Below, piece after piece: positions 56,786 to 64,000 of a stretch of DNA of 64,000 bases. A program made the translations under genes and the position numbers. Each line of letters starts with the position of its first letter. The stretch's first letter is position 1. The notes below the pieces were generated by a model. That model did no database searches. It was not told where the DNA came from and saw only the letters and a program-made list of their open reading frames with translations. Origin of the DNA: an uncultured Planctomycetales bacterium (GTDB lineage Bacteria; Planctomycetota; Phycisphaerae; UBA1845; JAFGLZ01); contig CAYMLO010000010.1 in assembly GCA_964390905.1 (NCBI GenBank), positions 18,186 to 82,185 on the forward strand, read 5' to 3'.

Positions 56786-57865
56786 ATGCCCGAGACCATG
56801 CAAGCCCAGGTGTTCTACGAGCCCGAAGACATGCGCCTGGAGCAAGTGCCCGTGCCCAAACCCGCCGATGACCAGGTCCTCTTCGCCGTCAAGGCGTGCA
56901 GCATCTGCGGGTCTGACGTCGCCTACTATTACGGCGACAGCTCGCTGGAGACCGAGACCGGCAAGGGCCCGCTGATCTTGGGTCACGAGTTCGCCGGCGA
57001 GGTCGTCGAGGTCGGCAAGATCCCCGCCGCCCTGGGCCTGTTCAAGCCCGGCGACCGCGTCGTCGCCGACCCGGTTCAGTACTGCAACGCGTGCGCGTCG
57101 TGCAAGAAAGGCCAGGTCAACCTCTGTGAGTTCAAGGACGTGCTGGGCGTCAGCGCGAACGGCGGGTTCGCCGAGTACTGCGTCAGCCACTACACCGGCC
57201 TGCACAAGGTGCCCGAGGGCGTGAGCTGGGAACACGCCGCCCTGACCGAGCCGCTCGCAGATGCCCTCTACGCCGTCAACAACATGGAGATCGAGATCGG
57301 CGATTTCGCCGTCGTGATCGGCCCGGGTGCGATCGGGCTAATGATGCTGCAGCTCGCCAAGGCCGCCGGCGCGGGCACGGTCGTTTTGGTCGGCACGCGC
57401 GACTACCGCCTCGAGATCGGCAAACAGGCCGGCGCCGACGTCGTCATCAACACCAAGGACAGCAAGTCGCCCTACTACGCCGCCGACCTGAAGGCCAAGA
57501 TCGACGAGCTGACCGGCGGCATGTTCGCCGACGCCGTCGTCACGCCCACCGGTGCGATCGAGGCGATGGAGCAGGCGCTGGCCATCAGCGGCCGGCGATC
57601 GCGCATCGTCCTGTTCGGCCTGCCCGCCGACGACGCGATCGTCCGCGTCCCCGCGCTCGAGTCGATCCTGTGGGACAAGACGATCCGCTTCAGCTGGCTG
57701 GCCCCCCTGACCTGGCCCGCCGCGGTCCAGGCGATGTCGACGGGCCTGGTCGACCTGAGCATGATCTGCACGCACACGATGAAGCTCGACGACCTCGTCC
57801 AAGGCCTCGCCGACGTCAAAGACCGCAAGGGCAACCCCATCAAGGCGGTGGTGAAGATGGATTGA
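56786..57865 (+). CDS. Zinc-dependent medium-chain alcohol/polyol dehydrogenase (MDR family)
   Basis: CSICGSD...GHEFAGEV catalytic-Zn motif, structural-Zn Cys cluster CNACASCKKGQVNLC, VIGPGAIGL Rossmann motif. Confidence 0.85.
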   Translation: MPETMQAQVFYEPEDMRLEQVPVPKPADDQVLFAVKACSICGSDVAYYYGDSSLETETGKGPLILGHEFAGEVVEVGKIPAALGLFKPGDRVVADPVQYCNACASCKKGQVNLCEFKDVLGVSANGGFAEYCVSHYTGLHKVPEGVSWEHAALTEPLADALYAVNNMEIEIGDFAVVIGPGAIGLMMLQLAKAAGAGTVVLVGTRDYRLEIGKQAGADVVINTKDSKSPYYAADLKAKIDELTGGMFADAVVTPTGAIEAMEQALAISGRRSRIVLFGLPADDAIVRVPALESILWDKTIRFSWLAPLTWPAAVQAMSTGLVDLSMICTHTMKLDDLVQGLADVKDRKGNPIKAVVKMD

Positions 57866-58009: not shown

Positions 58010-59851
58010 GTGTGGGAGCTTGCATCTCGATCGATCCGTACAGAAGGAGCGAGGCCGGTGAGAACTCTATTGGACTTCCCAAAGGCTTTCCAACCTCTTG
58101 TAGTCGTAACCGGCGACCGACGGGAGGTGCCTCCTCAGTCGATCGGCGATATCCTCGCCTACTGTGTTAGTAGCATAGACTTCATGTTCATGAATCACCT
58201 CCGCCTGGGGGACTGTCCTGTTCTGTCCGACAAGCAATTCGTTGTCGACTCGGCAGAGGACCTCAGCCGGCGTTTCGGCCGAAGCAACATCCTCGTGATT
58301 GGTTCGCCCGCAGTCAACCTGCTCGCCCGCAAGATCAATGAGGGATCTCTTTTCGGATTCTCGATCAGCAGGCAAACGAAGGACGAGTTAGCGGAACAGT
58401 ACCGGTTCGTTAGAAAGCATGGCTTGGACGAAGAGGGATCCCCCGATGAGGACGCTCTCCACATCTACCATCAGTGCCTCGAGGGCATCGTGGACGTTGA
58501 TAGTATCCTTGCCCGGTTCTCTGGGCGTGCGCCAAACATCGGTGATCTTCGCGAGAAAGCAGAGACGATTGTCAATGCGTTTAAGAAGACCCGAATCTGG
58601 TCGGAGTCCAGGGCCTCCTCTACGATCAGGCCGATACGCCATCTCATGCACAAGCTCGACAAGCCCGGGATACGCGACTCCCTGAGCAAGACCATCAGAG
58701 GCGAATCCAGCGGGCTCGACAAAGACTATGGCCTCATTTCACTTGGGCCGAATCCCTTCAGTGAAAAGCCCGGTTACTCGACGGTATATGTCGCGGGAGT
58801 GCACGGACCGGGGACTGCGCTCGGGCTGAGGCTTCTGATGGACAAGAGGTCCTTGAAAGGACACCCGTATGGTGGGGTATATGAGGTCTTCCTGAGCCGG
58901 TTTGCGGCGTACTTCGAACGCACAGAGAAAGCACGTCCGCGATGGGAGACCCCGGAATACGAACCCGATGCGGTGCCGCTCGACAAGATCGACATCACAA
59001 GGAATCTGAAGGTGTTTCTCTCCAGCCCTGCTCCGAAGGCCGACCAAGTTCAGAAGGACTTCGACAGGAGGCTGCGCGAGGGACTTGAGGGTGTCTGTAG
59101 GGAGGAGCGAGTCGGTCTGACCATCGAAGATCCCTATACCTTGGCATTGGGTGTGAAGCACAGCTTCTGGAACGTCATCCTGGAGTACGAACGTGACTGC
59201 GACTTCGTCCTACATGACATGACGGGATGCGCTAAGGGGGTAATGGTCGAGGTGGGGTTCTCCGTCGGCACTCGTAGGCCATACTTCTTGATATGGAATG
59301 CAGAGAAGTGCCCGGTAACGGACTGGCGTGAGATGCGCGTGCCAAGTCTCCTGGAAGAAGCTAATATCGAACAGGTCAACATCAGCGACGAGGCGGGCAC
59401 CACAGATACTCTGCGCAAGAAGATACTCAAGCCGGCACTGGAGAGGTCTGTAGACTGCGATTCGTGTGAAGGGCTGACGAAGGAGACCGGCAAGAGGGCT
59501 GCGTTCGTCTACGCGCGCCGACGTGAATTGACGAGGCAACTGGACAGGCTACTGAAGGATGAGCATATCGAGAGAATCGCCGAGGAGGAGTCTGAACACC
59601 GATCCAGGAAGTGCCGGATCTGTCAGGTGCTTGGCGTCGCTGACTACGCCTTCATAGAGCTCTCGGATGACGATCCCGACAGCTTCATTATGCTTGGAAT
59701 GGCCAAAGCGATGGGCAGGAAGACGCTCGCGCTGACAATGAAACGGTACAATAAGGACCAATTCGCCTGGGCGGAGGATACAGTGCAGTATCAACTGGAC
59801 AATCTGCAGGGAGCGCTCTCTGATAGCGTACCCCGGTTCGTCGCCTTCTAG
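58010..59851 (+). CDS. Orphan large protein in a lower-GC segment; C-terminal half resembles two tandem nucleoside-2-deoxyribosyltransferase/TIR-like modules (hypothesis)
   Basis: Uninterrupted 613-codon ORF. The probable start is GTG 58058 (GGAG 8 nt upstream). Uses codons that look rare in the flanking genes (AGA, AGG, TTA, ATA, GTA). Module-like motifs: KVFLSSPAP...GVMVEVGFSVGTRRPYFLIW and AAFVYARR...SFIMLGMAKAMGRKTLALT. No family recognised with confidence. Confidence 0.55.
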   Translation: MWELASRSIRTEGARPVRTLLDFPKAFQPLVVVTGDRREVPPQSIGDILAYCVSSIDFMFMNHLRLGDCPVLSDKQFVVDSAEDLSRRFGRSNILVIGSPAVNLLARKINEGSLFGFSISRQTKDELAEQYRFVRKHGLDEEGSPDEDALHIYHQCLEGIVDVDSILARFSGRAPNIGDLREKAETIVNAFKKTRIWSESRASSTIRPIRHLMHKLDKPGIRDSLSKTIRGESSGLDKDYGLISLGPNPFSEKPGYSTVYVAGVHGPGTALGLRLLMDKRSLKGHPYGGVYEVFLSRFAAYFERTEKARPRWETPEYEPDAVPLDKIDITRNLKVFLSSPAPKADQVQKDFDRRLREGLEGVCREERVGLTIEDPYTLALGVKHSFWNVILEYERDCDFVLHDMTGCAKGVMVEVGFSVGTRRPYFLIWNAEKCPVTDWREMRVPSLLEEANIEQVNISDEAGTTDTLRKKILKPALERSVDCDSCEGLTKETGKRAAFVYARRRELTRQLDRLLKDEHIERIAEEESEHRSRKCRICQVLGVADYAFIELSDDDPDSFIMLGMAKAMGRKTLALTMKRYNKDQFAWAEDTVQYQLDNLQGALSDSVPRFVAF

Positions 59852-59895
59852 CGAGATGGTGCGTCGAGACGGACGTTACTACTGCTGCTACAGAC

Positions 59896-60636
59896 GTGGC
59901 GCATCTTCATGTCGAGACGGACAGATCCACCATGGCGCTATCTGACGATCTGACAGCGCTTCTGAAATCAGCTGGGGCGGATCTGGTCGGGTACGCCGAC
60001 TTGCGCGATGTTCCGGCCGAGGTGCGGCATTCCTTGCCGTATGGCGTGTCCATCGCCGTCGCGCTGGATCGGGACGTGCTTTCCCAGATCGTCGACGGGC
60101 CGACGCGCGAGTACTACGGCGAGTACCAACGGGTCAATCGCCTGCTGGATGAGTTGGGGCGCCGGGCCGCCGAGCGGATCGCGGACCGCGGGTACAAGGC
60201 CCGCTCATTCGCGGCGACCAATGAAGGCATCGACTGGGATGCCCTCGCCACGCCGCTGCCGCACAAGACGGTGGCGACGCGTGCCGGGCTGGGGTGGATC
60301 GGAAAATGCGCCCTTCTGGTCACCAAGCCCTTCGGGTCAGCGGTTCGGCTCACGACGGTGCTGACGGATGCGGACCTCCCGACCGCGTCGGCGATCAACG
60401 AATCGCAATGCGGCGATTGCACGGCATGCGTTGACGCCTGCCCCGCCCGCGCCGTCAGCGGCACCGAGTGGGCGGTGGGCGTGCCTCGAGCGAGCTTCTT
60501 CGACGCCTATGCCTGCTGCAAGACCGCAGGAGCGCTGGCCGCGGAGAGGACCGGTTTCACGGAGATCATCTGCGGCGTGTGCATCGCCGCGTGTCCGTGG
60601 ACGAAACGGTACATCCGTCGCGATCAGCAGAGCTAG
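59896..60636 (+). CDS. QueG-like 4Fe-4S protein (epoxyqueuosine-reductase-related, short form)
   Basis: ATRAGLGWIGKCALLVT and the ferredoxin-type clusters CGDCTACVDACP and CGVCIAACP. The start is more likely ATG 59932 (MALSDDL...). Confidence 0.6.
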   Translation: MAHLHVETDRSTMALSDDLTALLKSAGADLVGYADLRDVPAEVRHSLPYGVSIAVALDRDVLSQIVDGPTREYYGEYQRVNRLLDELGRRAAERIADRGYKARSFAATNEGIDWDALATPLPHKTVATRAGLGWIGKCALLVTKPFGSAVRLTTVLTDADLPTASAINESQCGDCTACVDACPARAVSGTEWAVGVPRASFFDAYACCKTAGALAAERTGFTEIICGVCIAACPWTKRYIRRDQQS

Positions 60637-62907: not shown

Positions 62908-64000
62908 ATGTCACTTCATGTATCGCTAGTGGTCATACCGGTACTTTCGACGTCGGTGCTCGGCGGCGAGCGAAGCATCGCGCGCGTCGAGACCCGGGAC
63001 GGCGTCCCCGTGCTGGTGATCGACGGGAAGCCGTGTGCCCCGGTCATGTATCGGGAGAACTTCGCGCACAAGCATCGCGAATCGAGCATCGCCCATTACC
63101 AGCGTGTCGCGCGGGCCGGCGTACGGCTGTTTCTCTTCCCTGTCGGGCTTGGCCTGACGCAATCCCACGAGCAGCGCGTCAAGGGGTGGGACAGGAACTC
63201 GGGCCCCGTGCTCGAGCGGATGCTGCAGGCCGTCGGACCCGAGGCGCGGGTGATCCTGCTGGTCCCCACGACGGTGCGTCGCAGGTCGGCCAAGAAGTGG
63301 GCGGATGAGAATCCGGGCGAGATGATGGTCTGGCCGCCGGACATGAGGCGGGGGGATCGCGCGTCCATCTCGTCGCTCAAGGCGCGCAAGCTGGCCCACC
63401 AAGCCGTGGCCGACCTGGTCAAGTACATCGACCGGCAGCCCTATGCCAATCGCGTCGTCGGCTACTTCTTCTGCGGCGCAGGGGGCGAATGGCTCGACTA
63501 CTGGGACTACAGCCCGGCGGCGGAGGCCGGCTTTCGTCGTTGGCTGGCCGCACGCTACGGGAACGACGCAGCGCTGCAGAAGGCGTGGGGCGACGGGCAG
63601 GTGCGCCTGACATCCGCCAAGCTGCCGGCCTGGGACGAGCTGAATCGAGCGGATTCTGGGTTGTTCCATGACCCGTCGCGCAGCCGACGGGTGATCGACT
63701 TCATGCGGTTCTACCACGAAGACCTGGCCGCCGCGGCGTCCGAACTGGCGGCCGTGGCCAAGAAAGCCTGCAGAGGCACACGGCTGGTCGGTCTGTGGGG
63801 CGGGTACTACTTCTTCTCCAACTGGTCGGCCCCGATCAGCGGCACGTTCCGCCGGCGGCAGGGGGCGTTTGACCAGCTCGTCAAAGACCCCAACATCGAC
63901 TTCTTCATGGCCCCCTACAACTACCGCGAGCGGCATCCCGGAGGCGTCTACGTGCCGCAGTTTCTCAATGACACGATCCGGCTGCACGGCAAGCTGGCCC
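62908..64000 (+). CDS. Glycoside-hydrolase-like protein (GH42 beta-galactosidase-like pattern), 3' end beyond the window
   Basis: Absent from the track (no stop inside the window). Hand translation from ATG 62908: MSLHVSLVVIPVLSTSVLGGERSIARVETRDGVPVLVIDGKPCAPVMYRENF...YSPAAEAGFRRWLAARYGNDAALQKAWGD... stays open to position 64000. The W-L-x-x-x-Y-G-x-x-x-x-L-x-x-A-W block is typical of GH42-like enzymes. Confidence 0.5.
   Translation, partial: MSLHVSLVVIPVLSTSVLGGERSIARVETRDGVPVLVIDGKPCAPVMYRENFAHKHRESSIAHYQRVARAGVRLFLFPVGLGLTQSHEQRVKGWDRNSGPVLERMLQAVGPEARVILLVPTTVRRRSAKKWADENPGEMMVWPPDMRRGDRASISSLKARKLAHQAVADLVKYIDRQPYANRVVGYFFCGAGGEWLDYWDYSPAAEAGFRRWLAARYGNDAALQKAWGDGQVRLTSAKLPAWDELNRADSGLFHDPSRSRRVIDFMRFYHEDLAAAASELAAVAKKACRGTRLVGLWGGYYFFSNWSAPISGTFRRRQGAFDQLVKDPNIDFFMAPYNYRERHPGGVYVPQFLNDTIRLHGKLA

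Follow-up and report, generated by a model that had tools for sequence, protein, structure and literature searches.

We analysed a 64,000-nt stretch of DNA (the window) from an uncultured Planctomycetales bacterium (contig CAYMLO010000010.1, positions 18,186 to 82,185 of the forward strand), in which a gene of 597 codons lies between a gene for an alcohol dehydrogenase (ADH; 56786-57865) of the medium-chain dehydrogenase/reductase (MDR) type and, on its 3′ side, a gene for a QueG-like Fer4_16 protein. We consider, with a probability of about 55%, that this gene encodes a horizontally acquired single-polypeptide sensor-effector protein of immune or abortive-infection type, the predicted output of which is cleavage of nucleotide N-glycosidic bonds. 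The N-terminal part of the protein (the N-module) recurs in many other proteins, fused to exchangeable partner domains; the C-terminal half carries two modules similar to nucleoside 2-deoxyribosyltransferases (NDTs). Residues are numbered along the uninterrupted plus-strand open reading frame (ORF) 58010..59851 of 613 aa; numbers in the 597-aa protein are smaller by 16.

A mobile N-terminal module with exchangeable partners

In an earlier note, made from the letters of this DNA alone, the protein was called an orphan. It has many relatives: a first homologue search returned 64 of them (at 90% clustering), ∼44 being full-length with 33-53% identity, while ∼20 share only residues ∼18-320, accompanied by an XRE-type helix-turn-helix (HTH) domain, a caspase (P0058) or an HNH domain (P0013, a fusion that also carries the C-terminal half). 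A hidden Markov model search against 1.84 billion representative sequences extended the family to at least 611 clusters with the N-module at 50% identity (E-value ≤ 1e-3), 245 of them with E-value ≤ 1e-30. The architecture seen in the window was found in only ∼20 of the best 150 cluster matches. The commonest form is a protein of 410-500 aa, where the N-module is C-terminal and is preceded by an extension of 100-140 residues.

The N-module, ∼300 aa long and 29-61% identical between proteins, follows domains of the XRE-HTH, caspase, Ser/Thr kinase, SIR2_2, TIR_2 and HNH types on their C-terminal side. Of 107 representatives with the N-module that were scanned with Pfam, at least 57 had an XRE-type HTH; Pfam scans further detected caspase (P0096, P0098, P0119, P0135), Ser/Thr kinase (P0127, P0128, P0141, P0149, P0154, P0186), SIR2_2 (P0129, P0110) and TIR_2 (P0101) partners. 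PADLOC models matched the kinase domain of the relatives as PD-T4-6 (E-value 3e-68), the TIR domain as Aga-TIR/ThsB/SAVED-TIR, the SIR2 domain as Aga-SIR2, and the caspase as well; all these matches were to the swapped partner domains, and in none of the relatives did a PADLOC model cover the shared N-module.

Judged by these architectures, the N-module appears to be a discrete mobile domain, and the swapping of effectors has the look of a signature of conflict systems. TIR, DrHyd, caspase and kinase domains are the usual interchangeable effectors of such systems (PMC7159879; PMC8195603; PMC9503650; bioRxiv 2022.07.19.500537). That the partners of the N-module (PD-T4-6 kinase, TIR, SIR2, caspase) match bona fide defence effectors supports the immune reading, and the link to conflict systems suspected in the earlier note is borne out by this network of domain fusions. 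As most members of the family combine an HTH with the N-module, which is the classical one-component layout of input and output, the N-module fits best as an input domain.

Three relatives, P0146 (521 aa), P0068 (638 aa) and P0191, have N-terminal extensions of ∼180-195 residues with no match in Pfam or PADLOC; these extensions may be further unrecognised output domains.

Two NDT-like modules in the C-terminal half

The AlphaFold2 model of the C-terminal half (residues ∼331-613) has a mean predicted local distance difference test score (pLDDT) of 93.2 and a predicted template modelling score (pTM) of 0.91. The order of beta strands and alpha helices is alike in the two modules of this half, and the pTM value indicates that the modules are fixed in orientation to one another. 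The presence of tandem NDT- or TIR-like modules had been proposed in the earlier note; two tandem Rossmannoid modules are supported, with module 1 NDT-like, while the idea that module 2 is an equivalent active copy is not, since it lacks the catalytic-type Glu.

Module 1 has the sole Pfam match of the whole protein, to PF05014; this match is below the gathering cutoff and spans only positions 61-99 of the profile; PF05014 was detected in 16 of 59 scanned members of the family (E-value < 0.01). When the family profile was compared with the sequences of the Protein Data Bank (PDB), NDTs only were matched (E-values 0.004-0.02), with the alignment running from the FLSSP strand to GVMVE.G. In Foldseek searches with the model of the C-terminal half, the NDT structures 9emx, 9emw and 7o62 were found with probability 1.0 and a target template modelling score (TM) of 0.49-0.56. 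The top match, SARM1 (7anw; E-value 3e-5, probability 1.0), had a root-mean-square deviation of 23 Å, i.e. a poor superposition; the weaker matches were two-Rossmann-domain enzymes. A TIR profile did not match the window protein, and one member of the family matched TIR_2 with E-value 0.0088.

In NDTs the Glu of the GVMVELG motif is the catalytic nucleophile. E414 of module 1, invariant among 41 sequences, is aligned with the Glu of this motif in CtNDT, the NDT of Chroococcidiopsis thermalis; residues H402, D403, T405, G410, V411 and G416 of module 1 are invariant as well. Module 1 combines the three-layer alpha/beta Rossmannoid model expected of an NDT/DrHyd domain with the Glu of the G-x-x-x-E-x-G pattern; fold and catalytic motif thus favour its placement in the NDT/DrHyd superfamily, for which the Pfam score falls short of the cutoff.

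One position may speak of a difference in substrate. Tyr7 of NDTs selects 2′-deoxyribose; the window protein has Phe336 (vFLSSP / IFLSSP) where the wild-type NDT has this Tyr, and the best PDB match is the engineered Y7F/A9S variant of CtNDT, which together argue against classical deoxyribosyl transfer. The natural Phe may indicate that the sugar of the substrate is other than 2′-deoxyribose. The KVFLSSPA strand (59009-59032) is closer to the Y7F/A9S variant (9emx, crystallised with cordycepin) than to the wild type.

Module 2 could be aligned with module 1 by hhalign with P = 0.0045, a weak match in the expected register. In place of Glu414-x-Gly of module 1 it has Leu562-Gly563, the only invariant residues of module 2. 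With Leu562 at the place of the catalytic Glu, module 2 represents a degenerate form of module 1. The two CxxC pairs, at least 80% conserved among the 41 full-length sequences, may form a putative Cys4 (Zn) site (C483, C486, C535, C538) joining the linker between the modules to module 2.

Active sites of NDTs form at the interface of subunits. The simplest reading of a tandem of an active and a dead module is therefore a pseudo-dimer formed within one chain, in which both modules contribute to a single composite site, and such a pseudo-dimer of modules 1 and 2 is what we predict.

The N-module

The AlphaFold2 model of the N-module, built with an alignment of 59 sequences, has a pLDDT of 94.2 and a pTM of 0.91 and presents an alpha/beta domain into which a variable helical segment is inserted; many matches to the N-module are split into two stretches, at profile positions ∼4-136 and ∼180-340. 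No solved relative of this fold was found: the best Foldseek match in the PDB had E-value 0.18 and probability ≤ 0.44, and the best match in BFVD had E-value 0.47. There was no Pfam match to the N-module in 166 scanned members, nor a significant match to the N-module of the window protein in NCBIfam and PHROGs. Family profiles containing the N-module matched only HTH and NDT chains among the PDB sequences, none of them in the N-module region.

It was suggested earlier that the N-terminal half is a SLOG-like or other nucleotide-binding Rossmannoid domain. This candidate was rejected, as no match was found in Pfam, NCBIfam, PHROGs or PADLOC and the fold matched nothing in the PDB or BFVD; given how confident the model of the N-module is, the lack of structural matches leaves the SLOG idea unsupported. 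The N-module is missing from the libraries that were searched, and, our literature search being limited, may have been described before under another name.

Twelve residues of the N-module are invariant over all architectures (D36, K75, P100, R107, F115, F117, D239, P249, G263, T269, G288 and G289) and nine are nearly so (G35, R38, D47, D74, G98, S99, N103, D223 and W312). The conserved motifs are G35-D36-R38-E39 (GDRRE), D74-K75 (SDK), G98-S99-P100 (GSPAVN) and G263..T269 (GVHGPGT). NLLVIGSPAVN..AR and VAGxHGPGTA are junctions of a strand, a Gly-rich loop and a helix, and by their pattern seem to resemble the usual shape of a phosphate-binding site. Conservation of D36, K75, R107, D239 and T269 in every architecture suggests one shared ligand or chemistry.

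Foreign origin of the gene

The earlier note had pointed to a low-GC segment with a single gene and to codons scarce in the flanking genes; the calculations confirm both. With a GC content of 0.563 against the mean of 0.664 the gene is the strongest compositional outlier of the window, having the lowest GC among all 1842-nt segments (standard deviation 0.0205; ∼4.9 standard deviations below the mean). Among 28 gene-like ORFs of at least 300 aa its z-scores are -7.0 for GC, -3.3 for GC at third codon positions (GC3) and +2.9 for codon-usage divergence. The GC content is ∼0.67 on either side of the gene and 0.555-0.59 inside it; the intergenic region 5′ of the gene has a host-like GC of 0.66, which confines the block of low GC essentially to the gene and the 80-nt spacer downstream. 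GC3 is 0.687, in comparison with 0.81-0.94 in six flanking genes. Codons AGG, AGA, ATA, GTA and CTT are 4- to 25-fold commoner than in the six neighbours or are absent there (per 1000 codons, gene versus neighbours: AGG 27.7 versus 1.7, ATA 9.8 versus 0.4, GTA 13.0 versus 0, AGA 6.5 versus 0.9).

Only the ORF 62926-63987 on the minus strand (353 aa) has a larger codon divergence; its GC3 equals its overall GC, it is antisense to an annotated GH42 gene, and it is probably a spurious high-GC shadow ORF, best left out of any gene count. Among the real genes of the window the next-largest codon-usage divergence belongs to the ADH gene (56786-57865), 0.159 with the mean of 0.074.

In 5.8 billion sequences searched, the protein has no homologue nearer than 53% identity; near-identical copies come only from the same genome in other samples, with 100% identical DNA at the same locus. 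Orthologues of the upstream ADH, found in a search of 185k genomes, are 74-94% identical in metagenome-assembled genomes (MAGs) of Planctomycetales and Phycisphaerae, which marks the host as a planctomycete. The homology of these relatives stops exactly at the ADH stop codon, with a different sequence following in each, and neither our gene nor the genes downstream of it in the window are next to the ADH in any of these MAGs. Loss of synteny 3′ of the ADH, together with absence of the gene there, rules out a syntenically conserved core gene. Since the ADH orthologues (loci L014-L018) have wholly different 3′ neighbours, the entire neighbourhood is poorly syntenic, not only the low-GC gene, and a clean empty site cannot be shown.

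In the family at large, GC of the gene was below GC of the flanks in 25 of 31 non-redundant loci (mean difference -3.7 points, Wilcoxon p = 7e-4). A reverse mismatch was observed at L082:1972-3768, where a full-length member with GC 0.53 is situated on a contig with flank GC of 0.33, i.e. is 20 points higher; this is further evidence for inter-phylum transfer.

A classical genomic island is recognised by several marks, of which the gene has atypical composition. Among its called neighbours in the window there is no integrase or transposase, no tRNA gene is present in 45-64 kb of the window, and no direct repeats bracketing the gene were found; the single ORF between the dehydrogenase and the QueG-like gene is placed just as the earlier note described it. 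Given the extreme composition, the distance to the nearest homologue and the lack of the gene after the ADH in related MAGs, horizontal acquisition of the gene by this planctomycete is well supported.

Genomic context of the family

We clustered, all against all, 464 neighbour ORFs from 55 loci, taken from architectures other than the SIR2, TIR and kinase fusions. No recurrent partner gene of the main family emerged: 126 neighbours were spread over 125 Pfam families, and two small ORFs located 5′ of HTH versions bear no relation to one another. Lack of a conserved neighbour in 55 loci characterizes the family as a single-gene system.

Some neighbours are themselves defence or mobile genes, though these contexts are individual loci and raw tallies. 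At a caspase-fusion locus an MmeI-type restriction-modification gene and a Fic gene are adjoining; at an HTH-fusion locus there are a divergent Ser/Thr kinase, an AAA_16 ATPase and an integrase; further loci have insertion sequence (IS) elements, an integrase or a resolvase. The neighbours include two retron-type reverse transcriptases, two IetA-like and two PD-T4-6-like proteins. No relative of either half was found among 2.9 million viral contigs of IMG/VR.

At L080:2571-16864 the full-length member P0031 is cut after ∼470 aa by an IS66 element, with TnpB and DDE_Tnp_IS66 directly 3′. This gene stands in a textbook defence island: a phage-type integrase and an Mrr_cat protein of 884 aa are found on one side of it, and an AIPR gene of abortive infection on the other.

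A divergent subclade with HTH and N-module (L076:1207-4375; L103, L104, L105, L107 and L111) is followed by genes for a GHMP kinase and a nucleoside triphosphate (NTP) transferase. Genes of the subclade have overlapping stop and start codons; L108 and L109 are without the kinase, and all belong to one lineage with 70-92% identity. As the operon is confined to one lineage, it may reflect vertical synteny. The operon hints that the N-module may also work in ordinary regulation by metabolites, and that its ligand may be a phosphorylated sugar, a nucleotide-sugar or a nucleotide-like compound.

Comparison with known systems

The closest parallel is with the DrHyd/NDT effectors of conflict systems (TIR-DrHyd-SLOG clade; Burroughs et al. 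2015, cited in PMC9503650, PMC7159879 and PMC8195603). These effectors and the window protein share an NDT-type Rossmannoid module in which a catalytic-type Glu is conserved, and in both this module alternates with TIR, SIR2, caspase and kinase domains next to a constant partner. What sets the window protein apart is its tandem of a predicted active and a degenerate copy, which follows the constant module in the chain, and the constant module itself, which corresponds to no STAND/NACHT NTPase, vWA-associated protein, SAVED or other catalogued domain. We regard the C-terminal half as a new tandem, half-degenerate variant of this known effector class.

The NDT of C. thermalis (9emx/9emw/8pqp) was the best and only PDB match at the level of sequence profiles, from FLSSP to GVMVE.G. 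From a canonical NDT the window protein differs by the Phe in place of Tyr7 and in being fused, duplicated and about four times longer. Identity as a canonical NDT enzyme is not supported, on account of Phe336 and of the 597-aa multidomain chain.

In the SAVED and CARF fusions of CBASS and type III CRISPR systems (Cap4, TIR-SAVED, Csm6, Csa3) a ligand-sensing module is combined with swapped nuclease, TIR, caspase-like or HTH outputs, and activation occurs by ligand-induced oligomerisation. A similar combination of one module, presumed to sense, with swapped outputs is seen here, with no Pfam SAVED or CARF match in 166 members and no Foldseek match in the PDB. Genes of the family being solitary, there is no cyclase/CD-NTase partner, unlike in SAVED systems.

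ThsA has a SIR2-SLOG architecture. With ThsA and the Ser/Thr kinase PD-T4-6 the window protein has in common a single polypeptide composed of an effector and a sensory or regulatory region, and the kinase domain of the relatives with kinase and N-module matches models of PD-T4-6 (E-value 3e-68); the difference is that PADLOC models cover the effector parts only, with the N-module outside each.

One-component transcription factors are laid out as an XRE-HTH followed by a ligand-binding domain. The family majority (∼410-500 aa) has the same plan, an N-terminal XRE HTH, a linker and the N-module. The N-module, in contrast, matches no periplasmic-binding-protein, GAF, cupin or similar fold, and the window protein has no HTH and carries its predicted enzymatic output at the opposite end.

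Proposed mechanism and its alternatives

For ligand sensing, the mode of activation, the substrate and the defence phenotype we infer the following scheme. The N-module would be the constant input, binding a small common ligand that is probably phosphorylated, or some other cue of infection. With the ligand bound it would drive a conformational or oligomeric switch. The C-terminal half would serve as the output, a rigid pseudo-dimer of NDT/DrHyd modules mimicking the NDT homodimer. The activated E414 site, which is in module 1 only, would cleave the N-glycosidic bond of NAD+ or of a nucleoside mono- or triphosphate-type substrate, (d)NMP or (d)NTP, and the nucleotide depletion would arrest the infected cell.

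TIR and SIR2 assemblies, caspase dimers, kinases that trans-phosphorylate, HTH dimers and NDT interfaces are all activated by proximity or dimerisation. We put forward, tentatively and at somewhat less than even odds, a wider proposal: that the N-module is a new and widespread class of one-component immune sensor, having no partner signal synthase, in which ligand chemistry at D36, K75, R107, D239 and T269 switches interchangeable outputs (the tandem NDT-like nucleosidase, TIR, SIR2, caspase, kinase or HNH domains, or an HTH acting on transcription). In its logic such a class would be comparable with SAVED, CARF or SLOG. The ligand of such a sensor would be a direct metabolite of infection or damage, and its fold would be one with no solved relative.

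Several observations weigh against the immune sensor-effector reading. The PF05014 score of module 1 (27.3 bits, E-value 4.3e-6) is under the gathering cutoff of 28.8, and the Foldseek E-values of the C-terminal half are modest (3e-5 to 2e-3, with target TM of ∼0.5). The window protein matched 0 families of PADLOC-DB v2 at E-value ≤ 10. Most neighbours in the family are housekeeping genes, the window included, and the HTH subclade in a sugar-nucleotide operon indicates that the N-module is not restricted to immunity. The many invariant charged residues of the N-module could also point to an enzyme instead of a sensor.

It is possible, though we think it unlikely, that the protein is a metabolite-responsive one-component or housekeeping regulator, whose N-module senses a sugar phosphate or a nucleotide sugar and tunes a nucleotide or nucleoside hydrolase in stress, dormancy or salvage. 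The TIR, SIR2, caspase, HNH and PD-T4-6-like kinase partners, being typical suicide or immune effectors, are hard to accommodate in such a role, even if HTH fusions dominate the family and many loci are amid housekeeping genes. Co-transcription with the GHMP kinase and NTP-transferase genes in one subclade favours it as well; this operon link, however, comes from a single lineage of 70-92% identity. Furthermore, in most hosts the genes stand out by a foreign composition, and their distribution is patchy (best homologue at 53% versus 74-94% for ADH orthologues).

A reversal of roles appears still less probable: the N-module would be a new catalytic enzyme, while the NDT-like pair and the other partners would be regulatory, targeting or nucleotide-binding accessories. 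This explanation would account for the unusually many invariant polar residues (D36, R38, E39, D47, D74, K75, S99, R107, D223, D239, T269) and for the two strand/Gly-loop/helix motifs typical of phosphate-binding sites, at the price of two toxic catalytic domains in a single chain wherever TIR, SIR2, caspase, HNH or kinase is the fusion partner. Module 1 keeps an invariant catalytic-type Glu, of which a mere binding domain would have no need; the N-module matches no known enzyme fold, and a combination of an HTH with an enzyme is rarer than that of an HTH with a sensor.

One could think also of a selfish addiction or toxin module, in which an NDT-like toxin is curbed in cis by the N-module as antitoxin and serves the element rather than the host. 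Mechanistically this is hard to tell from the sensor-effector explanation, and we rate it as improbable: the composition is foreign, the gene is solitary and IS, integrase or resolvase neighbours are frequent in the family, but the flanks in the window are free of mobile-element genes and 2.9 million viral contigs contain no relatives.

An ordinary salvage NDT, suggested by the PF05014 similarity and by the name nucleoside 2-deoxyribosyltransferase that JGI gives to two homologues, is very improbable in view of the length (597 aa versus ∼150 aa for NDTs), the large extra module common to immune effectors, the Phe of the family in place of the deoxyribose-recognising Tyr, the degenerate second copy, the Pfam score below the gathering cutoff, and the foreign composition and patchy distribution of the gene.

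Gene start and other features of the locus

The ORF start at 58010 adopted in the earlier note adds 16 unsupported codons. The true start is GTG 58058, as is seen from the AGGAG located 8 nt upstream, the equivalent start residue of the homologues and the 597-aa product of gene callers. Scans for terminators and promoters gave no signal beyond the shuffle expectation.

Table 1. Positions in the window of the gene, its modules and neighbouring sequence features
Feature	Positions	Strand	Remarks
Shine-Dalgarno-like AGGAG	58045..58049	+	8 nt ahead of GTG 58058; read off the sequence
Gene	58058..59851	+	GTG start, 597 codons and TAG stop; homologues and gene callers begin at the equivalent of codon 17
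N-module	58058..58969	+	ORF residues 17-320; constant mobile alpha/beta domain
Variable helical insert in the N-module	58430..58666	+	ORF residues ∼141-219; reduced or missing in many relatives
C-module 1	59000..59419	+	ORF residues ∼331-470; divergent NDT/DrHyd-type Rossmannoid, predicted catalytic
Catalytic-type motif HDMTGCAKGVMVEVGFSVG	59213..59269	+	E414 codon 59249-59251
Two Cys pairs	59456..59623	+	C483-x2-C486 (59456-59467, CDSC); C535-x2-C538 (59612-59623, CRIC)
C-module 2	59489..59848	+	ORF residues ∼494-613; degenerate counterpart of module 1
12-nt exact direct repeat GTCGAGACGGAC	59863..59922		Copies at 59863-59874 and 59911-59922, 48 nt apart

Copies of GTCGAGACGGAC are situated in the 80-nt spacer and about the point where the downstream Fer4_16 gene begins. 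By our own estimate ∼0.2 such repeat pairs per 2.8 kb are expected by chance; the repeat may represent an operator, the scar of an insertion or a chance occurrence.

Significance

If the sensor-effector reading is true, a single-gene immune family would have as its shared input a domain of ∼300 residues that is present in at least 611 clusters and has no entry in Pfam, PADLOC or the PDB, and the ligand of the N-module would be a new infection signal, read with no dedicated second-messenger synthase. The tandem pseudo-dimer with one live site would then make a compact and testable case of nucleotide-depleting immunity, NDT/DrHyd domains having hitherto been predicted as conflict effectors. The family supplies natural controls, with the same sensor joined to different outputs, and would help to explain how TIR, SIR2, caspase, kinase and nucleosidase effectors are activated.

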